From contig CM000153.2 of the NCBI GenBank assembly GCA_000004695.1, positions 5,120,001 through 5,184,000 of the forward strand: a stretch of 64,000 bases of DNA, given 5' to 3'. The notes under the pieces were generated by a model. That model had not been told where the DNA came from and searched no databases. It was given only the letters and a program-made list of their open reading frames with translations. The stretch comes from Dictyostelium discoideum (Eukaryota). Numbering within the stretch: the stretch's first letter is position 1; each line of letters opens with the position of its first letter. Shown piece after piece: positions 5,247-58,949 of the stretch. A program made the translations under genes and the position numbers.

Positions 5247-6362
5247 ATGAAAAAAGATATTATTTTAGTACTTTTAATAGTATTACATTTATTCTTTTTT
5301 GTTTCAATATTCGCAATTTCACCAAATTCAGAGATAAAACCACAAACAATAGACACCCAATCTTCAACTTTAACAACTTCCTCTACAACAACAACAACAA
5401 CCTCTTCACCAACAACAACCCCATTGGACATAAAACAACAACAATTAAAACAAAATATTATAGATAGTAATAATAATAATAAGATTAAAGAAGAAGAAAA
5501 AGAAAAATCAAAGAATGTTTATGTTACATTTGCAGATAATGCAGAATATTTAAAAGGTATAGTAGCATTAAGAATGTCAATGATAAATACAAAGTGCAAT
5601 TATGGATTGATTGTATTTGTCACTAAACAAGTTGAACAACAAGATAGGGAACCATTACAATTGTTAGATTGTGATGTTAGAGAGATTGAAATGGTTGATA
5701 TACCAAAAGAAGTGAGTGTCCAAATCGACAGATGGAGACCTGCTTTCACAAAGTTCAGAGCATGGCAATTGGTGGAGTATGAGCGTGTCATTTGGCTAGA
5801 TTCCGATATGTTGTTGTTGAAATCGTTGGATCACTTATTCGATTTGGTTGATATCGGCAACCCGAAATTACTATATGCTGCAATTGACGCAGATGCGAAT
5901 AGTTGTGTGTTCAATAGCGACCGTTTGAAATTAATAAATTCAGGTATAATGCTATTGTCACCATCGATTGATGTTTATAATCTGTTGATTGATGGAATGG
6001 TGGTAGTTAGTAAACTACCAAACCAGAGCACTGTAAACGACCAAGATGTGATCAATACCACTTTGCCACACTGGAGATCCTTGTCATATCCAGAGTATGG
6101 CGTTCAAATAACACATTGTGAATGCACGAGTGAGCCAAGACTTTGGAATTTTACAAATACTTATTTCTTACATTTCACTGCCGGTCTAAAAGAATTACCA
6201 AAACCATGGTCACTACTAAAGAAATCTCAAAATGAAGCTAAAGATATCTTTAAACAAATGCCAACTTGTATTGAACAAATTTATTTAAATTGGATTAATA
6301 CATATAAAGAAGCTTTAGATTTTATTGAAAATAAATTAAATTTAGTTAATTTAGTAAAATAA
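5247..6362 (+). CDS. Glycosyltransferase family 8 (glycogenin-like) type II membrane protein
   Basis: N-terminal hydrophobic signal anchor, Thr/Ser-rich stalk, then a GT-A catalytic core with YVTFADNAEY...WLDSDMLLL (DxD motif) typical of GT8 enzymes. Intronless, 371 aa. Confidence 0.75.
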   Translation: MKKDIILVLLIVLHLFFFVSIFAISPNSEIKPQTIDTQSSTLTTSSTTTTTTSSPTTTPLDIKQQQLKQNIIDSNNNNKIKEEEKEKSKNVYVTFADNAEYLKGIVALRMSMINTKCNYGLIVFVTKQVEQQDREPLQLLDCDVREIEMVDIPKEVSVQIDRWRPAFTKFRAWQLVEYERVIWLDSDMLLLKSLDHLFDLVDIGNPKLLYAAIDADANSCVFNSDRLKLINSGIMLLSPSIDVYNLLIDGMVVVSKLPNQSTVNDQDVINTTLPHWRSLSYPEYGVQITHCECTSEPRLWNFTNTYFLHFTAGLKELPKPWSLLKKSQNEAKDIFKQMPTCIEQIYLNWINTYKEALDFIENKLNLVNLVK

Positions 6363-6977
6363 AGAAATTTAAAATGAAAATAAAAATAAAAATAAAAATA
6401 ATATTTTAAACTAAAAATGTAAATATAAAAATAATAATTTTAAATTATTTTCTATTTTTTTTTTTTTAAAAATCTTTAAGCTTAAATCAAAAAAAAAAAA
6501 AAAAAAAATCAAAAAAAAAAAACTAAAAAATGTAAATTAATTCTATTTTTAGAATAATAAAATAATAATAAATAAATATAAAATAATAATAATTTTATAT
6601 TATTTTTTATTTTTTTTTTGGTTCAAATCACTTATTTTCGTTGATTGATTTTTTTTTTTTTCTATTTTTCAGTTTTATTTTTAAAAATCTGATTAATTTT
6701 TTTTTTTTTTTTTTTTAAATTTTTTTTAATTTTTTTTTTTTTTTTTTTTCTTAAAATCAAAACCAAAAACTTAAAATTAATATGGCAACTTAAAATAATT
6801 ATTTTTTTTATTTTTTTTTATTTTTTTATATTTTTTTACTCACTTTTTCTATTGCAATAATTTTTTTATTTTTTATTTTCCACCACATACATACACACAC
6901 ACTTCTTTTTTTTATTTTTATTTATTATTATTTATATATATATATAATATATATATAAATAATAATTAAAATTAAAT

Positions 6978-12944: not shown

Positions 12945-14730
12945 TTAATTAATTTGAGTATTAACTAAACCACCAGCAACACCATCAACAAAATTATCCA
13001 AAAACTTTTTAGTGATTCTAGTATAATTTGTAACTTGTTCTTTCCATTTTATAAATGCTTGATAATCTTCCAATTTATCTAAACTTTGTTCATATTGAGT
13101 TGATAAAAGATTGGTATGTTTTTCGAGATCTTCTTGAAGGTATTCGAAAAGATTACGTTCTTGAGATTTTTTATCCAAATAGTAACCATAGACATAGGAG
13201 TATTGTAATACACGACGATTCTTTAATAACTGTTCAGTTGCCTCCATAAGGAATTTGGTATCAGCCGATCTAACATCGAATTTACTTAAGATTTGTTGTT
13301 CCTTAAGATGTGCGTTCCTTCTTTGTTCATCGGCGATCTTCATAGCGTTTCTATGTGATTCATATCTGTGGTAGTAAAACATATATGCCTCTAATTCAGT
13401 TTTAGCATCATGTGCTTTATCATCATCTTCTTTGGCTTTTGATTTATCATATTTGTTACAATTGTAATAACCACCAGTGGTTGAACCATGTTCAGTCCAT
13501 GGACCACGACATAGCCAACAAAATTCAAATCCACAACCACCTGCATTCTTTCTACATGTCATATGCATACAACCACCTTAATTTTATAATAATAAAAATA
13601 AAAAAATAATGAAAATTAGTATAAATAAATTTTTTTAAAAAAAAAAAAAAAAAAAAAAGTTATAATTTACTTACCATTCTTTTCAATTGGACTACGACAT
13701 TCTGGACATTTTTTAGTATTTGCTAACATCCAAGTTACATTTTCAGATTCATCAGAAGCTTTTTGAAGCCATTTGTCAACTTGACTACATGGACATGGCA
13801 TATGATCACCAATTTCATAATCATTACAATTGAAACAATATTGGAAACCACATTTACAATTAACTGCTTCTTTACGTTCTTTACGATCGCATCTAATAGA
13901 ATATATACAACCAGGAGCTGGACACCATTTAACTTGTGGATTATCATCTACATATGATTTCAAAATAAAGTTATTGAAACGTTCAAACACTTCTGGTGAT
14001 ACAATTTGTTTGAATGCATCTTGATGTACGATTACTTTACATTTTGGTGCTGGACATGGTGTATAAATACATTCAGGTCCTTCACTAACTTTTATCTCTA
14101 AATAGTTTTTATAACATGGTAAACAATAACGATGATTACAAATTAATGCAAATGTTTGTGTTGGTGGGTAATCTTCTAAACAAATTAAACATGAAACATT
14201 TCCACTCTTTTCTACAATTGTTGCATTTAATTTCATAACATTTGGTACACCTGCATCTATACATAATTTCTCTGGATTTTCCATATATCTTTCAATTAAT
14301 TTTTCTTTATTCCATCTATAAAAATAAAACAATAATAATAAAAATAAAAAAAAAATAAAAAAAAAAAAAAAAAAAAAAGGTTAGAATTTATAAATTATTT
14401 AAAAAAAAAAAACTTTTAAAAATAAAAAATTAAAACTTACTTCATATGTCTTAATAAAGTTGAAACAGCAGCTTCAGATGGAATACTTAAAACATCTTTA
14501 ACTTCTTTTATAATTTTATGAGATTCTGAGAAAAGATCATCTTTATTTAAAACTTCAAAACTCTTTTGTCTTGTTAATTTACCTAGAGATCTTTGTGGTT
14601 GGTTTTCATCAAAATCAAACTCTTGGGTTGCTGCATCATCATATTCTGTATCATCTAATGATTCGTTTCCTGACTCTTCGGCTGAATCATCATCTACATC
14701 ATAATCTTCATACATTTCATCGTCTGTCAT
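12945..14730 (-). CDS. Ariadne-type RBR (RING1-IBR-RING2) E3 ubiquitin-protein ligase; exons 14730-14441, 14315-13675, 13576-12945
   Basis: Three minus-strand ORF fragments join through two introns (GTAAGT donors on the minus strand at 14440 and 13674; AG acceptors before 14315 and 13576). Phases are consistent (2, 1, 0). The protein has an acidic N-terminus, then WNKEKLIERY, then C3HC4 RING1 (CLICLEDY...CNHRYCLPC), then IBR (CPAPGC...CKCGFQYCFNC), then RING2 ([34 protein letters not shown]), then a C-terminal Ariadne domain. It may be the D. discoideum rbrA family. Confidence 0.85.
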
Positions 14731-26657: not shown

Positions 26658-27351
26658 TTGTTTTTATTTAATGTTAATAATAATTGATTTATTTTCTTTT
26701 TTTTTTGATTAAAAGTGAAAATAAAAAAAAAAAAAATTTTTTGTTTTTTATTAGATATTTCCCAAAAAAAAGATATTTATGTGGGGTAAGCCATAATTTA
26801 TTTTATTTTTTTTTTAAAAATTAAAAACAAAAAAAAAAAAAAAGAATTGTTGTGGAAATAGAGATAAATTAATTAAAAAAAAAAAAAAAAAAATTAAATG
26901 ATTTTGAAAGGGAAACAATAGTTTTACTTGATTGATAAAAGGAAAATGATAAATAAGGTAATGATAACTCGAGTGATGAAAAAATTACTTTAAAAGAGAA
27001 TGAAGATTATGTTATCAATCAAGAACAAGACAAGAAGAAATCATGGTTACTCGAGATATGGAAATTTAATGAAGATTTAGAATTCATATGACGGTAAAGA
27101 AGATGGTGTTTATTATGAAATGGACAAGATGGTGATGAAGAGGATGAAGAATTTAAATAATTATGTAAAAAATTATGTTTAATTCTAAAATGTGATTCAA
27201 AAAAATGCATTATTTCAATTCAATTTGAGTTTAACTTAATTTTTTTTATTTATTGCAATTTTTTTTTTTTTGTTTTTTATATTTTCTATTGTTTTTATAT
27301 ATTTTGAAATTTAATATTTCAGGAATTTTCCAAAGATGGATGGTAAAAATA

Positions 27352-27778
27352 TTAAACAGTATTGCAAGTCAAAACAGTTGAACCTTTGTTTGTTAAGGTT
27401 AATTCAAATCCTCCAAAACTACGGTCATATTCGCCAAAGTCATTAAATGTATCCTGTTCAGCTGGTGAGACTCCAGCTTGCATTTGAATTGTACCAACAC
27501 CACCCCCATCAACTTCACAATTAACAACTGTTGGTTTTGTTGCCCATGTTGGCTAAAAATATATAAAAAAATAAAAAAATAAAAAAAATAATAAATAAAA
27601 GGTTAGGATTTTAAAATGAAATAAATATATTATAAAATTTAATAAAATTTACAATTGATCCTTGAGATTGTCCTGGTTGTAAAGTCCATGGTCTAAATAA
27701 TAATAATTTTAGGTTATTTATTAGATACAATTTCAATTAAAAATGAAAATTTTTTTTATCTTTATATTACCCAGCCAT
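27352..27778 (-). CDS. Small three-exon gene (83 aa) not in the ORF track; exons 27778-27771, 27692-27653, 27552-27352
   Basis: The minus strand reads ATG GCT GG, then a GTAATA intron (78 bp, ends TTTAG), then exon 2 encoding (G)PWTLQPGQSQGSI, then a GTAAAT intron (100 bp, ends TTTAG), then exon 3 encoding PTWATKPTVVNCEVDGGGVGTIQMQAGVSPAEQDTFNDFGEYDRSFGGFELTLTNKGSTVLTCNTV and TAA at 27352-27354. Phases are consistent (2, 0). The region is less AT-rich than its surroundings. Confidence 0.45.
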
Positions 27779-48037: not shown

Positions 48038-48112
48038 TTTATTTTCTTTCTATCTTTTTTATTTTTCTTTAAAAAGTTAAAAATCTGGAAATTTTCTAAT
48101 TAACTTGGTTCC

Positions 48113-48156
<44 letters not shown>

Positions 48157-48271
48157 TCTTTTTTATATGAAAAATGAAATAATCAAAAAAAGAGATTGTT
48201 GTTGTTGTTTGTTTTTTTCGATCTCCAAAATAATCGATTTATTTTGCTATTAAAATTTTTATTTCATCCAA

Positions 48272-48354
48272 AGCAAGGGTAGGAAAGTCTGGTTAAATCC
48301 GTGTGACTTAAGATCTCATCCATTCGGTTCGCGAGTTCGAATCTCGCCTCTTGC
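48272..48354 (+). tRNA. tRNA-Leu (anticodon UAA), class II with a long variable arm, 83 nt, no encoded CCA
   Basis: Manual cloverleaf fold. The 7-bp acceptor stem GCAAGGG/CTCTTGC includes one G-U pair, with discriminator A. U8 and A9 are present. The D-stem is 3 bp, with GG in the D-loop. The anticodon loop is CTTAAGA (anticodon TAA, U33 present), on a 5-bp stem with one U-U mismatch. The variable stem-loop is CC-ATTC-GG. The T-arm is GCGAG-TTCGAAT-CTCGC. Confidence 0.8.
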
Positions 48355-48391
48355 AATGTTTTCTTAATTTCAATTATTCGATTATTGGTTC

Positions 48392-48402
48392 AATTCTTTA
48401 AT
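48392..48402 (+). promoter_or_regulatory. Candidate external B-box (ex-B) downstream of the tRNA gene
   Basis: GGTTCAATTCT lies 38 bp downstream of the tRNA 3' end and resembles the internal B-box GGTTCGAATCT of the same tRNA. Dictyostelium tRNA genes commonly carry an extra B-box about 30-40 bp downstream. Confidence 0.4.
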
Positions 48403-48407
48403 GAAAC

Positions 48408-48656
48408 AATATACAAATTAAATAACAGAGACCAATTAATAATCAACTTCAACACATCATGGCATAACCCGAACACTCCAAACCCAATTCCATTATAATA
48501 AAAAAAAAAAAAAAAAAAAAAAACAAGTAGTAGTAATCATAATATAACCAAAAATATCAACATATAACAATATAAAAATTTAAAAATTTAAAAATCTAAA
48601 AATTTAAAAATGTAATAAAATATAACAATACACCGCTTTTAGGTAAAAAAAAAAAA
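48408..48656 (+). mobile_element. Two tandem poly(A)-terminated fragments, possibly 3' ends of a downstream-targeting tRNA retroelement, flanked by a 16-bp direct repeat
   Basis: GGTTCAATTCTTTAAT occurs at 48392-48407 and again at 48657-48672. Between the two copies lie two segments, each ending in a long A-run (48497-48520 and 48645-48656). The first segment has unusually C-rich sequence (ggcataacccgaacactccaaacccaattcc). Confidence 0.3.
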
Positions 48657-49135
48657 GGTTCAATTCTTTAATTTTAAATCCAAGGTTTCATAGGTTTTTG
48701 TTACATAGTTGCACATGTTAACCACTATGCTGTGCCCATTTTTATGAGCTTAAAGATTACCCGTAGTCTAGAATCAAATCAAAAAAACCGCCAAAACCAA
48801 CCAAACACCCAAAAAAAAAAACTGGCGAACCTATTGGATGGATACAAAATTAACATAAAAAAAAATTCTCCCTCAAACAAATCAATAGAACCCGACTAAA
48901 CCACGATTAGCATTATTTTTAAAAATATAATCCATAAATAAACTTTTAGCTATTGTAAATTTATTCACTTAAATGGATAAACTCTAAAAAAAAAAATTAA
49001 AAAATAAAAGATAAAAAATTTGTATTACTTGAATTAATACTGTTACAGAAGAAATGTTTTATTAATTTTTATTTTTTATTTATTTTTATTTTTTTAATAA
49101 TTTTTTATCTTTTTATTATTTTTATAATTATTTCA

Positions 49136-54437: not shown

Positions 54438-54833
54438 CACTTTTTTTTTTTTTTTTTGGTGAATAAAAAAAAAATAAATAAAAAAAATAAAAAAATAAAA
54501 AAAAAGTAAAAATATTAACATTTGAATGAATTCTTTTTTAAAATATAAAAATTAACAAACCTACCTTTTTTTTTTTTTTTTAATTGTTATACTATATTTT
54601 ATTACTATTAATATTTGTCTATATTGTTTTTTTTTTTTTGTTTTTTTTTTTGTTTTTTTTTTTTTAATATTTTCAGTTCCCTCACAAATATTTATAAAAC
54701 TTTTTTTTTAAAAAAAAAAAAAAAAAAAAAAATTGGTTAGTGATTTAATTTAATTTAACCCAAATTAAAAATAAAAAAAAAAAAATAAAAATAAAAAAAA
54801 CAATTTTATAAAAAAAAAAAAAAAAAAAAAAAA

Positions 54834-54879
<46 letters not shown>

Positions 54880-55349
54880 TGTATCCTTTTTAAGGAGGAA
54901 AGTAAATTTCAATTTAAAGGAAAAAATTTATATTAAAAACAATTTTTTAAAATACACATAGGCCCTAGGGTTTTGAAAAAAATTATTATTGGGGTTTTTG
55001 TTTTTGGAAAAAAATAATCCCCTTTTTTCCCAAGATTTGTAAAACAAAGGGGTTTTTTTTTTTATTTTTTTTTTATTTTTAAAAAAAATAATAATAATAA
55101 TAATAATAAAATGGGGGAGGTAAAAAGGGTTTTTTTTTTTTTTTATTGGTTTTTTTTTTTTTTTTTTTTTTTTCCTTCCTAAAAAAAAAAAATTAAAATT
55201 AAAAATAAAAATAAAGATAAAATAAATAATGATTTAAAATACCTTACAATACCAATATCGAGTTGATAAACTTATGAATCCAATATATAAATATGAACAA
55301 TCAAAAATAATAACAAAAAAAAAAATAAAAAAAAAAAAAAATTTTAAAA

Positions 55350-55385
<36 letters not shown>

Positions 55386-55619
55386 CACATTTTTTTCATT
55401 TTTTTTTTTTTTTCATGTTTTTTTTTTATTTTTATAAAATTCCATCAATTTTTGAACTTCATAAAAAAAAAAAAAAAAAAAAAACACAAAACACAATTTA
55501 TTTAGATCATCAATATTTTAAAATTAGTTGAAAATTTGGTTTTTTAATATAACATGATTTAATAATTAAATAGAAAATCTAAAAACCTCGCAGTAAGTTA
55601 TTCTATAGTGGAGTTAATA

Positions 55620-55621
55620 GA

Positions 55622-55675
<54 letters not shown>
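55620..55675. repeat. (AAT)n microsatellite
   Basis: Eighteen AAT units lie immediately upstream of the 55729 gene. Confidence 0.9.
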
Positions 55676-55677
<2 letters not shown>

Positions 55678-55728
55678 TCTGTTAAATCTTATCTTTAATT
55701 TATATATATAGCTAAATAAATATAAAAC

Positions 55729-56130
55729 ATGGACAAACAAATAAGTAAAATAACAATAGAAAATGACTTTTATTCTGTTGAAAATGTAAGAGCAAATCCA
55801 CATAAACTATTTGTTTTTGGTGATAATAATGCCTCGCGTGGTAAAAAGGGTCAATCTATAATACGTGATTGTCCAAATTCACATGGAATACCAACAAAGA
55901 AGCATCCATCACTTCATCGATCATCGTTCTATACAGATAAAGAATTGAAAGATAATATCAAAAGAATTGATGAATCTATAGCCAAACTTAAAGAACGTTC
56001 ATCAGAATACCAAGAAATAGTGTTACCTGCTGCTGGTCTTGGAACTGGTCTTGCGCGTCTTCAAGAAAGTGCACCAAAAACTTTTGAACATTTACAAAAA
56101 GAATTAAATAAATTAAAACAAACAATTTAA
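55729..56130 (+). CDS. Small intronless protein (133 aa) with an FVFGDNxxSRGKKGQ...PNSHGIPTK motif
   Basis: A clean ORF with non-biased codon composition, isolated between very long A/T tracts. The motif resembles nucleotide-binding Rossmann-like (SLOG/DprA-like) bacterial or phage domains, but I cannot assign a family from sequence alone. Confidence 0.5.
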   Translation: MDKQISKITIENDFYSVENVRANPHKLFVFGDNNASRGKKGQSIIRDCPNSHGIPTKKHPSLHRSSFYTDKELKDNIKRIDESIAKLKERSSEYQEIVLPAAGLGTGLARLQESAPKTFEHLQKELNKLKQTI

Positions 56131-56657
56131 AAAATTAATTGCGTACACATTTATTAAAAATAGAATTATTTTATTTGTATTCTCATTGTGTATTAATACA
56201 CATTCTTCACCCCCTCGTAACTATTTCAAGAATTCTTTGTGAGTGTTTAAAATACGAGTAAACTCAAGACGTTCATTACCTTCAAATACATTAAGAAGAC
56301 AGGAAGTTTAAATTTTATATTTCTAATAGTTGATAATTTCTTTAATACACCCGAGATGTTGTTACAAATGTATGTTTTTTATGTGTGTTGGTTTTTGTGA
56401 AACATTTTTTTTTTTTTTCTTTTTTTTTTTTTTATTTTTTATTGGATTTAATTAAATTAATTCTTTTTTGGGGAAATGAAAAAAAAATAAAAATAAAAAA
56501 AAAAAAACTGAAAAATTAAAAATAAAAAATTAAAAATAAAAAATAAAAAATAAAAAATTAATGTTGCTTAGATAATCAAAAATATCATTTATTAATAAAC
56601 GGTTTATCGATTATCATATTTAAGGTGGGTTAATTTTGTAATGTAAACCATTTTTTT

Positions 56658-56712
<55 letters not shown>

Positions 56713-57437
56713 TACTTCTTTAATTTTTTTTTTATTTTTATTTTTTATTTTATTTTTTTATTTATTTTATTTTTTTAAACCATTAAAAAATTATTAGATA
56801 TAATTTTAAAAACAAATTATTATAAAATTTGTGCTGACCTTTATAAACCCAAATTTTTAATTATTTAATTTTTATTTTTTTTTATTTTTATTTTATTTTT
56901 TATAATTTTTTTTTATTTTTTTTTTTCAATATTGGAAAATTTTTTTTTTTTTTTTTCTTTTTTTCTCAAATTTCCACCACCTTATAAAACTCATTGTAAT
57001 TAATTAAATAACACTAAACCAGAATAATCTATTTTCATTTATTTTTTTCTATTTTTTTTTTTATTTTTTTTTATTTTTTTTATTTTTTTTATTTTTTTTT
57101 TTGTGTGCAATATACATTTTTTTTTTTATTGTTTTGAATTTTTTTTTTTTTTTCATCACCACAATACAACACAACTCACCAAATAAACACACCTTTTCTT
57201 TTTAATGCACATAATAATATCACTTTTTTAAATAACATTAAATCATTAACACATCAAAAATCAAACAAATCATTATTGAAAAAACTCAATTCATAATAAT
57301 ACTTGGTGGTATCCCTCACCTCATTTTCAAAATTTAAAAAAAAAAAAAAAAAAAAAATAAAAAAATAGTATTAAAGGAGATAAACTCCGCTTTGTAAATA
57401 TTGTAAATAAACTCAATTGTATATTAAGAACAAACCC

Positions 57438-57471
<34 letters not shown>

Positions 57472-57492
57472 GAAAAAGAAGAAGAAAAAAAA

Positions 57493-58949
57493 ATGATAGA
57501 CTCAGATACACAATCATCGTTATCGATTTTAATGATGTTAAAAACCAATACTGGTGGAAATACATCAATTATAAAGAATAGAAAGGATTCAGATATTAGT
57601 GATAGTAGTGGTGATGAAGATTATAGATCAAGTTCAAAATCACTTCAAAAACTTTTTATTGGTTTATCAGAAGATTTCACAGTAAGTTATAAATTAGTTT
57701 TTTTTTTTTTTTTTTTTTTTTAATAAAAAAATAATAATATTAATTTTATAATTTTTAGTGCTCAATTTGTTATGAATTATTTGAAAGACCAATTATATTA
57801 CCATGTAATCATAATTTTTGTAAGTCATGTATTGAGGATATGGTAATTGGACAAAAACAAATATTTCATTGTCCATTTTGTAGAACAGAGGTAAAGTTAA
57901 CTGAGAAAGGTGTTGATGGATTACCAGTAAATTCATTTTTATTTACAGCAGTGGAAAAAATGAAAAACGCCAATGCATTTTGTCCAAAGTTTTGTGATAA
58001 TTGTACATCTAAAAAGGTGACAAGAAAATGTGAGACCTGTTCGATATCCTTATGTAAGGCATGTGAGAGTAGCCATGTCGCAAAGAATGGGGGTCACAAA
58101 ACCATCTATTCCGATAGTCACATTGCAAGTGATTTCGATATTGAGACTCATATTAACAAGGATAGCGATATCGATCCACCAACCTATTTACCATTCACCA
58201 TCTCAAGATCACAATGTGTTCAATTATTCCAAAATTGGATTTCATCACTTTGGTTTGCTCCATCCGATCTCAAGGTTAATAAATCGGTGCGTTATATAAA
58301 GCCAATCTACATTCCCTATTGGATATACGAAGCACATACCACCACAAAATATAGCGCAAATGTTTCAACCGGTGGTTCGGGTGTTGTTGGTAGCATCCTC
58401 ACCACTAATCATCATCAACAACAACCAATCTATCATCATCAATTGGCTGGTAAGTTTGATTCTACCAATTGGACTCACAAGGTAAACACAGTTTCAAACA
58501 GATATAGACATGCAACAATTGCAAACACTAAACTAATCGATAAGGATCTATTAACTCAAGTTCAAACTTGGGAAATCAATAACATTCCATCCGTTGATCA
58601 ATCTCAACCTCCCAATCCAAAAATTCAACCTTTGGCCTTTCTCACTGATGAAGCCACTGCTTGGAAAAAGATTGTAGAGGCTAAAATCCTTCAAAAAGAT
58701 AGAGAAGTATGTGAAAATCGTATAAAACTTGGTTGTGGTGTTGGTGGTGTTGCAAAAGATATAGTCATTGAAACTAATCTTACTCGTGTCGCCTCTCAAA
58801 AGGTTTTCCTTCCAGTTTATTTCATTAAATATATCTATGATTCTAAATCTTATACTGTCATTGTAAATGCTCAAAACTCAAAAATCGTTGGTCATAGACC
58901 CTATGCTCAAGGTTTAAGTACAATGTTTAGAATGTTTAAACCAACTTAA
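57493..58949 (+). CDS. RING finger (C3HC4) and B-box zinc-finger protein, TRIM-like; exons 57493-57681 and 57759-58949
   Basis: A phase-0 intron (GTAAGT at 57682, AG at 57757-57758) splits the RING finger. The product reads ...LSEDFT/CSICYELFERPIILPCNHNFCKSCIEDMVIGQKQIFHCPFCR. A B-box follows (FCPKFCDNCTSKKVTRKCETCSISLCKACESSH), then about 270 aa I could not assign. Confidence 0.75.

Follow-up and report, generated by a model that had tools for sequence, protein, structure and literature searches.

A virus-type DUF7831 gene in Dictyostelium discoideum and its possible relation to macro-like ADP-ribose-processing domains

Introduction

How did a small intronless gene with motifs reminiscent of prokaryotes and phages come to stand among the genes of a social amoeba, what might its product do, and does the GC-richer DNA that follows it carry a function of its own? 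These questions are raised by a locus in a 64,000-nucleotide stretch of the Dictyostelium discoideum genome (contig CM000153.2, positions 5,120,001 to 5,184,000), hereafter the window. The best explanation that we can offer is a domesticated, virus-derived gene of the DUF7831 family that encodes a minimal macro-like ADP-ribose-processing domain and is followed by an ordinary 3' flank; the chances that this account is right as a whole appear to us evenly balanced. A literature search found no paper containing the name DUF7831 or DDB_G0286989. The main interest lies in the family itself, which counts ~2,500 representatives at 50% clustering in giant viruses, jumbo phages and crAss-like polyvalent proteins, and has no assigned function.

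Results and discussion

The gene and its locus

The open reading frame begins with ATG, ends with TAA and encodes 133 aa, as quoted in an original prediction made from the letters of the window alone. Its translation is an exact match to the D. discoideum AX4 protein given in Table 1, which is already named DUF7831 domain-containing protein in UniRef. The gene is thus annotated, as a hypothetical protein, and the window yields no new gene. Because the frame is uninterrupted and spans positions 4-117/118 of the Pfam model, we regard the gene as intronless. Its description as small and isolated was also borne out, with ~1.2 kb of DNA at 8-16% GC upstream and ~1.6 kb separating it from the next called gene. 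The neighbors, in AX4 and in three other assemblies, are host genes for a coiled-coil protein, a RING-finger protein and a histidine phosphatase.

Table 1. Features of the DDB_G0286989 locus, in coordinates of the window
Feature	Position	Strand	Remarks
Complete intronless CDS, 133 codons + TAA	55729..56130	+	DDB_G0286989 / XP_637451.1 / Q54L06 (UniProt), DUF7831-domain protein
DUF7831 domain, residues 12-124	55762..56100	+	Predicted compact alpha/beta domain
Motif 1, residues 26-46, KLFVFGDNNASRGKKGQSIIR	55804..55866	+	Strand 2, then Gly-rich loop and helix
Motif 2, residues 50-60, NSHGIPTKKHP	55876..55908	+	Strand 3, ending in near-invariant T56-K57
Motif 3, residues 100-111, PAAGLGTGLARL	56026..56061	+	Strand 4, then second Gly-rich loop
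GC-richer non-coding block, 26.6% GC	56140..56410		Composition; probably 3' UTR and nearby intergenic DNA
Segment in opposite orientations in AX4 and a second D. discoideum strain (L008), with a further rearrangement in D. cf. discoideum (L007)	56159..56326		blastn
Distal part of the block, collinear and conserved across the three strains	56317..56395		88% identity to L008, plus strand

The gene has a GC content of 0.31 and a GC3 of 0.12, the latter ranging from 0.06 to 0.29 in the other long open reading frames of the window. This is the typical AT-biased codon usage of the host, and the balanced usage reported earlier was inaccurate. Viral homologs are similarly AT-rich (GC3 0.16-0.31). Composition therefore provides no evidence for or against transfer, and codon usage has to be dropped as an argument for it.

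Synteny extends to three further Dictyostelium assemblies (L006, L007 and L008), on Mb-scale contigs. A contamination or assembly artifact was considered and rejected given synteny with the same host flanking genes in four assemblies. With dN/dS values of 0.23-0.48, the gene is under purifying selection, and it is intact in several strains. It is best explained as a single domesticated copy of a virus-world family, lying between ordinary Dictyostelium genes, and no second viral-type gene was seen adjoining it. As such it provides a clear case of one virus-type gene kept under selection in a social amoeba.

Family membership and conserved motifs

The protein matched PF25176 (DUF7831) with an E value of 6.4e-39 and 132.9 bits against a gathering cut-off of 27. 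The phage family phrog_2072 (PHROG) also matched, and an NCBIfam scan of the protein matched no family. We defined the family core as the 28 columns that are at least 90% conserved over 285 diverse DUF7831 sequences. DDB_G0286989 keeps 27 of these 28 residues, the sole exception being A43S, which is the same in all three Dictyostelium strains. In this respect, and in carrying a full-length PF25176/phrog_2072 domain, it resembles Tupanvirus QJ857_gp0677, Megavirus courdo11 CE11_00477, APMV QJ850_gp528 and Caulobacter phage Seuss gp109. Like most giant-virus members it is a stand-alone protein of ~130 aa, but unlike the viral members it is encoded in a eukaryotic chromosome amid host genes.

The motifs that had first drawn attention, FVFGDN, RGxxGQ and PNxxGIPTK, are no chance resemblance and belong to the near-invariant core of the family, where their key residues are 98-100% conserved among the 285 members. 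Within motif 1, G31, D32, N33 and R46 reach 100% and G38, G41 and Q42 98-99%; within motif 2, the values are 100% for N50, 99% for G53, K57 and P60, and 98% for T56. Motif 3 is similarly constrained over the same set (G103 99%, G105 100%, T106 97%, G107 98%, L108 93%).

Distribution and origin

The best named matches were proteins of Tupanvirus, Megavirus, APMV and Cotonvirus (Mimiviridae), with 48-52% identity. Phage matches comprised 101 records at 32-51% identity, and proteins of cultured phages ranged from 32 to 41%. One homolog with 52% identity (P0007) shares its contig with two NCLDV capsid genes and with a sequence that weakly matches the A32 packaging ATPase; the contig of another (P0005) encodes a D5-like helicase, Ras and a tRNA synthetase. 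Matches in BFVD included Yasminevirus, Hyperionvirus, Rhizobium and Caulobacter phages and crAss-like large proteins. The family as a whole, with 2,562 representatives at 50% clustering, is present in tailed phages, jumbo phages, NCLDVs and crAss-like polyvalent proteins. In the phage gene neighborhoods inspected (phiPto-bp6g, Seuss, C2 and the huge phage LR745206), the neighbors were mostly of no known function. A prokaryote genome scan with one narrow peptide pattern, which is not a measure of bacterial abundance, returned one relative in an Isosphaeraceae MAG. Among the best 120 profile matches, the only named eukaryotes were D. discoideum and D. cf. discoideum, the rest being Mimiviridae or without a name. 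Taxon labels are lacking for most of the 2,562 representatives, and the distribution in eukaryotes is read from the named matches. Bar the bacterial MAG, all placeable relatives beyond the D. discoideum complex are viral or viral-like: giant viruses, phages and metagenome contigs of viral character. The suspicion of a foreign type of gene was thus correct insofar as the gene is of phage or virus type and atypical for Dictyostelium, but its nearest relatives lie in giant viruses and phages rather than in bacteria.

A transfer from virus to amoeba is likely and, because the giant-virus homologs are the closest, we infer an amoeba-infecting giant virus as the most likely source. Phylogeny leaves the donor without firm placement. 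In neighbor-joining trees over 123 columns, the Dictyostelium clade has 100% bootstrap support and an unstable attachment, cultured Mimiviridae form a clade excluding Dictyostelium (78-95%), and the split of Dictyostelium and NCLDVs from phages and the bacterium is recovered at 38% with all 285 sequences or at 82% with 59 taxa. Conversely, the gene could be an old eukaryotic one lost elsewhere, or one that viruses took from a dictyostelid-like host, and a tree that nests Dictyostelium inside no labelled viral clade, as well as a fully host-like codon composition, would be in keeping with such a history. Further eukaryotic members are also possible among the 1,793 to 2,562 homologs, mostly without taxonomy. 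We nonetheless find a non-viral origin distinctly unlikely. Among phages, jumbo phages, crAss-like phages and NCLDVs the family shows very great diversity, whereas the sole named eukaryote is one species complex forming a single tight clade. The matches listed, all above E 1e-44 and in a range in which an ortholog should turn up, include no other dictyostelid or amoebozoan protein, and the close unnamed matches lie on dense, co-directional contigs of viral type.

Acquisition from a virus would have precedents: the NCLDV-derived genes of Acanthamoeba are an example of giant-virus-to-amoeba gene transfer, at least in the outline given by Maumus and Blanc 2016 (PMC5203793). Set against that outline, DDB_G0286989 is alike in being a single virus-type gene in an amoebozoan chromosome with its nearest relatives in amoeba-infecting giant viruses, and differs in being one isolated gene under selection, not a multi-gene viral insertion.

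Predicted fold and function

The predicted model contains strands at residues 8-11, 26-33, 51-57 and 96-100 (DSSP) and helices at 17-21, 41-45, 70-91, 111-114 and 116-132, with no C-terminal strand. Together with the fusion partners of the family, this predicted fold suggests a compact macro-like ADP-ribose-processing domain. The fusions include NADAR (2), cpYpsA/YpsA (3), ADP-ribosylglycohydrolase, NAD-dependent DNA ligase, RNA ligase and XRN, and further ones involve AlkB-like 2OG oxygenase, RFC, PIF1/RecD helicases, and NERD and PD-(D/E)XK nucleases. Viral Macro domains have been reported with the same set of partners (PMC9503650). As context, the fusions with NADAR, ADP-ribosylglycohydrolase (ARG), YpsA-SLOG, NAD-dependent DNA ligase and RNA ligase suggest ADP-ribose chemistry. 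The family resembles the viral NAD+/ADP-ribose network of Macro, NADAR, ARG and YpsA-like SLOG domains (Iyer et al. 2022, PMC9503650): DUF7831 fills the usual Macro slot in NADAR and YpsA-SLOG fusions and shares the bias of the network toward large-genome viruses (jumbo phages, NCLDVs, polyvalent proteins). It is not recognized as Macro by Pfam, and a term search of the main text of PMC9503650 found no mention of the family.

The macro core is a six-stranded mixed sheet of order 1-5-6-2-4-3 (PMC9503650), and the model has four strands. The GxG-type loop of macro domains has a counterpart in the 98-99% conserved G38-x-x-G41-Q42 (family consensus GKGGQA), which comes straight after strand 26-33 and may line the ligand cleft. 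By inspection, from the fold match and the description of the GxG loop in PMC9503650, motif 1 may correspond to the phosphate/ribose-binding element of macro loop 1, and motif 3 is the proposed counterpart of macro loop 2. K57 is a candidate counterpart of the catalytic Lys in TARG1 (K84) and DarG, in a mapping to 'LITK84K' made by hand that hhalign does not reproduce; in this hand-made equivalence, the catalytic Asp partner of TARG1, D125, would align with Ala109. With the TARG1/OARD1 and DarG-type macro domains (ALC1-like class; PDB 2lgr, 5m3i, 5m31), the protein has no detectable sequence or profile similarity. It also differs from them in having four predicted strands, not six, no C-terminal strand and ~20 fewer residues. 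Nor is there a sequence relationship with Poa1p and the viral macro domains that act as ADP-ribose-1''-phosphate phosphatases (alphavirus, coronavirus nsP3 macro); these carry the motifs N-x6-GGG-[VLI] and G-[IVA]-[FY]-G, and DUF7831 instead has GDN-x4-G-x2-GQA and G-x-GTG-L.

Direct searches were equally negative for macro relatives. Pfam Macro (PF01661 and relatives) did not match the protein at E<=10, the family HMM found no macro chain among PDB sequences, a phmmer search of PDB sequences returned noise only, and Foldseek of the model against PDB gave nothing at E<=0.001. Comparison of DUF7831 profiles by hhalign with TARG1 alone and with a 115-sequence TARG1 alignment yielded probabilities of 0.9-1.6%. 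In PADLOC, no DarG model was among the results for the first member or among the 25 families that were matched most widely across the members.

We tentatively propose, as a possibility deserving some weight, that DUF7831 is an unrecognized minimal offshoot of the macro fold (four-stranded, ~120 residues), serving viruses as an eraser of ADP-ribose or NAD by-products, captured from an amoeba-infecting giant virus and kept working in D. discoideum. The two Gly-rich loops (GDN-x4-G-x2-GQ and G-x-GTG) would form a cleft holding the ADP-ribose moiety, with the near-invariant Lys57 acting like the catalytic Lys of TARG1 and DarG. The domain would then remove or process ADP-ribose on nucleic-acid ends or bases. 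An alternative substrate could be small by-products such as ADP-ribose-1''-phosphate from RNA repair of the Tpt1/KptA type; a Tpt1/KptA gene lies two genes from a DUF7831 homolog in one NCLDV contig, a single and anecdotal adjacency. In viruses the domain may clear or counter NAD-derived modifications. Giant viruses, jumbo phages and crAss-like phages may use it widely against ADP-ribose-based damage, including within injected polyvalent proteins, and the copy inserted into an XRN exonuclease could be part of the same counter or repair use. In Dictyostelium, the product would be one more ADP-ribose eraser.

Two other functions have to be weighed against an ADP-ribose eraser. The domain might have a macro-like shape and yet be another kind of enzyme, such as a hydrolase or phosphatase with nucleic-acid ends as its substrate, or else a module that binds nucleotides or nucleic acids without catalytic activity. 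This we regard as somewhat unlikely. Polar residues among the 28 near-invariant ones (D32, N33, Q42, R46, N50, T56, K57, D70, N76 and T106) fit an enzyme better than a passive binder, the Cys-x5-Arg phosphatase motif is absent from the sequence, and it is specifically NAD/ADP-ribose chemistry that the fusions with NADAR, ADP-ribosylglycohydrolase, YpsA-SLOG and NAD-dependent DNA ligase indicate (PMC9503650). Alternatively, as first suggested, the protein could be a SLOG/DprA-like Rossmannoid domain that binds or cleaves a nucleotide as LOG and YpsA do. A small alpha/beta fold with two Gly-rich loops after strands is indeed predicted, and DUF7831 belongs to the same NAD/ADP-ribose network as the SLOG domains. 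The LOG motif reads 'PGGxGTxxE', to which the 'P-x-x-G-x-G-T' loop is superficially similar. What stood of the suggestion is the small alpha/beta, nucleotide-binding-like predicted fold; no SLOG-class family gave a profile or structural match, and we consider an assignment to that class highly improbable. Returning to the macro-like reading, the fold match and the fusion partners make it a concrete and cheaply testable hypothesis of an ADP-ribose-processing module missed by standard macro-domain profiles. If it is true, surveys of viral NAD/ADP-ribose counter-defense undercount such erasers. Through the Dictyostelium copy, a member of the family becomes accessible in a eukaryote amenable to genetics.

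The GC-richer block 3' of the gene

The DNA downstream of the gene had been singled out as less AT-rich than ordinary intergenic DNA, and so it is: putatively non-coding 270-bp windows of the stretch average 15.9% GC (sd 5.7), and 5.4% of them reach the level of the block. The enrichment is real and moderately unusual, at about the 95th percentile of non-coding DNA. Within the block, no open reading frame was found, with stops in all six frames and no conserved ORF; no Rfam family matched at E<=1, and no second copy was present in the window.

Comparison between strains uncovered an inversion. Positions 56159-56326 align with L008 6559-6399 on the minus strand (72% over 170 nt, E 4e-24, blastn), and the segment consists of a ~65-nt core more than 90% conserved, flanked by diverged, indel-rich sequence. 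Per 100 bp, identity between strains falls from 90-99% in the CDS and 80-95% in the AT-rich flanking DNA to 33-43% in the inverted segment. Flanking the inversion there are A-rich and T-rich runs but no specific inverted repeats. The block contains a perfect 16-nt palindrome (56187-56202) that L008 does not conserve, and the idea that palindrome or hairpins are relics of Mimivirus-type hairpin polyadenylation signals was dropped on that ground.

Neither earlier proposal for the block, a structured 3' UTR or a relic of the donor sequence, gained support. The RNA folding z-score of the whole block is +0.55, and across the block and its sub-segments z-scores range from +0.07 to +1.41 on the plus strand and from -0.83 to +1.41 on the minus strand, no better than shuffles. 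In the collinear distal part, the alifold energy is -3.4 kcal/mol with 0 compensatory pairs (z +0.07 plus strand, -0.83 minus strand). A relic now seems less plausible: six-frame translations match nothing in viral loci, and no part of the locus is less conserved than the block, which is inverted between strains. The best explanation is an ordinary, fast-evolving 3' flank with an inversion polymorphism, not a functional RNA element. That the block might function after all, be it as a small RNA gene, as an invertible switch or through a structured 3' UTR, we judge very unlikely: its GC level, the conserved core, the conserved distal stretch of ~75 nt, the palindrome and the existence of both orientations among strains would all be compatible with a function, but the missing Rfam match, folding energies no better than those of shuffles, the lack of compensatory changes and of a conserved ORF, the overall low conservation, a palindrome not shared by L008 and an inversion flanked by nothing more specific than A-rich and T-rich runs all argue against one. 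The GC level of the block is matched by two other non-coding patches of the window, at ~26.9-27.5 kb and ~48.1-48.7 kb.

DDB_G0286989 belongs to the DUF7831 family

We found the small open reading frame exactly as the original prediction described it, with the same 133-residue peptide. Its translation is identical to XP_637451.1 / EAL63946.1 / UniProt Q54L06, the D. discoideum AX4 hypothetical protein DDB_G0286989; the gene is therefore already annotated and the window is D. discoideum. UniRef already labels Q54L06 as a "DUF7831 domain-containing protein". The gene sits in very AT-rich surroundings (8-16% GC over ~1.2 kb upstream and from ~56400 onward), between a coiled-coil protein gene on the minus strand upstream (~1,020-1,050 aa) and a RING-finger gene ~1.6 kb downstream. 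A microsatellite precedes the start codon within a stretch that aligns poorly between strains, and an overlapping minus-strand ORF was rejected as spurious. In D. cf. discoideum the called N terminus of the ortholog is nine codons shorter (MVSEFYSV...) and the upstream DNA has diverged; the domain may not need its first strand, or the annotated start may be wrong.

Table. Features of the DDB_G0286989 locus and of related loci
Feature	Sequence	Positions	Strand	Remarks
DDB_G0286989 CDS	window	55729-56130	+	ATG to TAA, 133 codons
Poorly aligned stretch	window	55530-55729		14-64% identity per 100 bp
(AAT)n microsatellite	window	~55622-55675		~55 nt 5' of start codon
Rejected ORF	window	55603-55803	-	66 aa; (AAT)n repeat read as poly-Leu
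GC-richer block	window	56140-56410		26.6% GC; stops in all six frames
Inverted alignment	window	56159-56326		to L008 6399-6559, opposite strand; 72% over 170 nt, E 4e-24
Palindrome	window	56187-56202		TGTGTATTAATACACA; perfect, 16 nt; ~57 nt 3' of stop codon
Collinear alignment	window	56317-56395		88% identity to L008
GC patch	window	~26880-27720		equals block GC; outside long open frames
GC patch	window	~48080-49000		equals block GC; outside long open frames
Perfect hairpins, 10 and 11 bp	L008 (another D. discoideum strain)	6458-6488, 6571-6596		
Ortholog	L007 (D. cf. discoideum)	6001-6375		
Rearranged segment	L007	6376-6540		
DUF7831 homolog	L010 (phage phiPto-bp6g)	5007-5390		
KptA/Tpt1 gene (PF01885)	L017 (NCLDV contig, JBAMKY010002649.1)	12991-13563		

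Pfam PF25176 (DUF7831) matched the protein along nearly its full model length (E 6.4e-39; 132.9 bits, cut-off 27 bits). The protein also matched the functionally unannotated phage family phrog_2072 (E 7.7e-13); NCBIfam and PDB sequences gave no match. Among 285 diverse DUF7831 domains, conservation reaches at least 90% at 28 columns, including G31 D32 N33, G38, G41 Q42, R46, N50, G53, T56 K57, P60, D70, N76, P100, G103, G105 T106 G107 and P116. DDB_G0286989 keeps 27 of the 28, the exception being A43S, and the motifs singled out from the sequence in the original prediction turn out to be this family core.

Relatives are found mostly in giant viruses and phages

A single-sequence search recovered no more than two Dictyostelium clusters, at 95% and 89% identity, plus four metagenome proteins. 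The profile search returned 1,793 proteins, and the best named matches were all from Mimiviridae at 48-52% identity (Tupanvirus soda lake and deep ocean, Megavirus courdo11 and caiporensis, Acanthamoeba polyphaga mimivirus and Cotonvirus). An exhaustive HMMER search among 1.84 billion cluster representatives brought the family to 2,562 members; its top match, metagenome protein P0124 (300 aa), carries two DUF7831 domains in tandem (229 bits over two stretches). Close metagenome relatives lie in viral contig contexts. For example, the 68-kb contig that encodes P0007 (52% identity) also has two NCLDV major-capsid genes, a poly(A) polymerase, a protein kinase and a gene that weakly matches the A32 packaging ATPase. 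Similarly, the 50-kb contig of P0005 carries a D5-type helicase, Ras, a class-I tRNA synthetase and many ORFans, and P0003, P0004 and P0006 come from short contigs with dense, mostly co-directional small genes. The viral structure library added Yasminevirus, Hyperionvirus and very large multidomain proteins of crAss-like phages. Among 50,697 phage records searched with tblastn, 101 matched at 32-51% identity, most of them Caulobacter, Rhizobium, Brevundimonas and Ruegeria phages, many of them jumbo phages. The homolog in Pseudomonas phage phiPto-bp6g took its annotation, "hypothetical protein DDB_G0286989", from its best database match; the block around it also encodes an ATP-dependent DNA ligase, an HNH endonuclease, a metallophosphoesterase and a dCMP deaminase. 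Scanning 185,579 prokaryotic genomes with a narrow pattern yielded one Isosphaeraceae MAG (39% identity).

The origin of the gene in Dictyostelium

Contamination was ruled out, as the same flanking host genes are present on megabase contigs in AX4 and three other Dictyostelium assemblies. The gene is maintained, since dN/dS is 0.23 between AX4 and L008 and 0.43-0.48 against D. cf. discoideum, values that come from few substitutions, and every Dictyostelium strain compared has an intact family core. No named eukaryote beyond the D. discoideum complex appears among the best 120 of the 1,793 profile matches, all better than E 1e-44, a level that orthologs in other dictyostelids should surpass. 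By pairwise Kimura distance, the Mimiviridae/metagenome group (0.68-0.81) is closer to Dictyostelium than cultured phages (1.19-1.32) or the bacterium (1.15) are. The tree points to no particular donor: the six cultured Mimiviridae cluster without Dictyostelium (78-95% bootstrap), and the split of Dictyostelium plus Mimiviridae from phages receives 38% support in the full set of 285 taxa and 82% in a set of 59. Composition is silent on transfer because GC3 (0.12) falls within the host range (0.06-0.29) and the viral homologs are likewise AT-rich (0.16-0.31). Overall, we consider a virus-to-amoeba transfer likely; it is probably so old, or was so neutral in composition, that it shows no codon signal.

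A predicted macro-like domain in ADP-ribose-related architectures

By inspection, DUF7831 has two conserved glycine-rich loops, each coming after a strand, an arrangement that it shares with the two ligand loops of macro domains. The loop behind strand 2 reads GDN-x4-G-x2-GQA and that behind strand 4 G-x-GTG-L, and T56-K57-K58 at the end of strand 3 in DDB_G0286989 recalls the "I-T-K84-K" of TARG1. Sequence methods did not confirm these apparent equivalences: the family HMM found no macro chain among PDB sequences, hhalign against TARG1 alone (sequence checked against 2lgr and 4j5q) or a 115-sequence TARG1 alignment gave a probability of at most 1.6%, and PADLOC reported no DarG match. Moreover, the canonical macro domain has six strands whereas the DUF7831 model has four. 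For both reasons we call the predicted domain macro-like and do not file it in the Macro superfamily; the resemblance seems somewhat more likely to reflect a true evolutionary or functional relationship than not.

Pfam scans of 67 representatives and further examples showed that many are multidomain. Partners include PIF1/RecD-like helicases (n = 3), the SLOG domains cpYpsA (n = 2) and YpsA (n = 1), NADAR, glutaredoxin and RanBP zinc ribbons (n = 2 each) and, once each, ADP-ribosylglycohydrolase, NAD-dependent DNA ligase (adenylation, OB and BRCT), RNA ligase, AlkB-like 2OG-Fe(II) oxygenase, an RFC clamp-loader subunit and a GT90 glycosyltransferase. In the metagenome protein P0125 (693 aa), DUF7831 occupies residues 286-399 between XRN_N and XRN_M of an XRN 5'-3' exonuclease; five near-identical cluster members from different runs rule out an assembly chimera. 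The domain is also internal in proteins of 2,000-6,500 aa, and NERD and PD-(D/E)XK nucleases and a weak SprT-like match occur within those of 2,000-3,300 aa. The metagenome proteins P0157, P0179, P0191 and others (2,000-6,505 aa) carry it mid-protein with few recognisable Pfam domains (helicase and those just named), and the crAss-like phage proteins cr272_1, cr130_1 and cr131_1 in BFVD embed it in giant multidomain proteins. These giants look like the polyvalent proteins of phages or conjugative elements, a type that the crAss-like structural matches also fit.

Tandem NADAR-Macro proteins are common in viral NAD+/ADP-ribose systems, and ADP-ribose derivatives, among them by-products of RNA repair that depends on KptA, are processed by Macro, NADAR and ARG alike (Iyer et al., PMC9503650). 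The fusion partners thus place DUF7831 in an architectural position usually held by Macro. In a single case, a KptA/Tpt1 RNA 2'-phosphotransferase gene lies two genes downstream of a DUF7831 homolog, between two NCLDV capsid genes; KptA is described as rare in eukaryotic viruses (PMC9503650).

In the mechanism we propose, DUF7831 would bind an ADP-ribose moiety between its glycine-rich loops and hydrolyze either ADP-ribose adducts at the ends or bases of nucleic acids or small derivatives like ADPr-1''-phosphate, with Lys57 and the D32/N33 pair as candidate catalytic residues. RNA whose 5' phosphate carries an ADP-ribose cap resists XRN-type exonucleases, and such adducts must be taken off before ends are ligated, which would account for the fusions to XRN and to ligases. 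We hold such ADP-ribose processing to be roughly an even prospect, or slightly under. Because Dictyostelium has an extensive ADP-ribosylation system, an extra eraser there is plausible.

The downstream block is an ordinary 3' flank with an inversion polymorphism

The GC content of the block is at the ~95th percentile of putatively non-coding 270-bp segments of the window (mean 15.9%), where two other patches, which may be short exons or UTRs, equal it. No second copy was found in the window. A structured 3' UTR, one of the two explanations suggested for the block, was not supported: Rfam gave nothing at E<=1 across 54500-58000, folding was no better than dinucleotide shuffles (whole z +0.55; sub-segments +0.07 and -0.83; +0.93 and +1.41), and no compensatory pairs occur in the conserved distal stretch. 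The other, a relic of donor DNA, found no backing either, as six-frame translations had no match in viral loci.

Between AX4 and L008, ~170 bp starting ~30 nt after the stop codon are inverted, as indicated by an opposite-strand alignment next to a collinear one, and the segment is rearranged again in D. cf. discoideum. No other part of the locus is conserved so poorly (33-43% identity per 100 bp in collinear alignment, against 80-95% in the AT-rich flanks and 90-99% in the CDS). With the inversion allowed for, an inner core of ~65 nt is >90% identical, but outside this core the segment (72% overall) has diverged far more than the AT-rich intergenic DNA around it. Only A-rich and T-rich runs flank the inversion. 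We take the block to be ordinary 3' flank, made up of UTR and proximal intergenic DNA, with a small inversion polymorphism. The palindrome within it is not conserved in L008, whose block instead has two perfect hairpins elsewhere.
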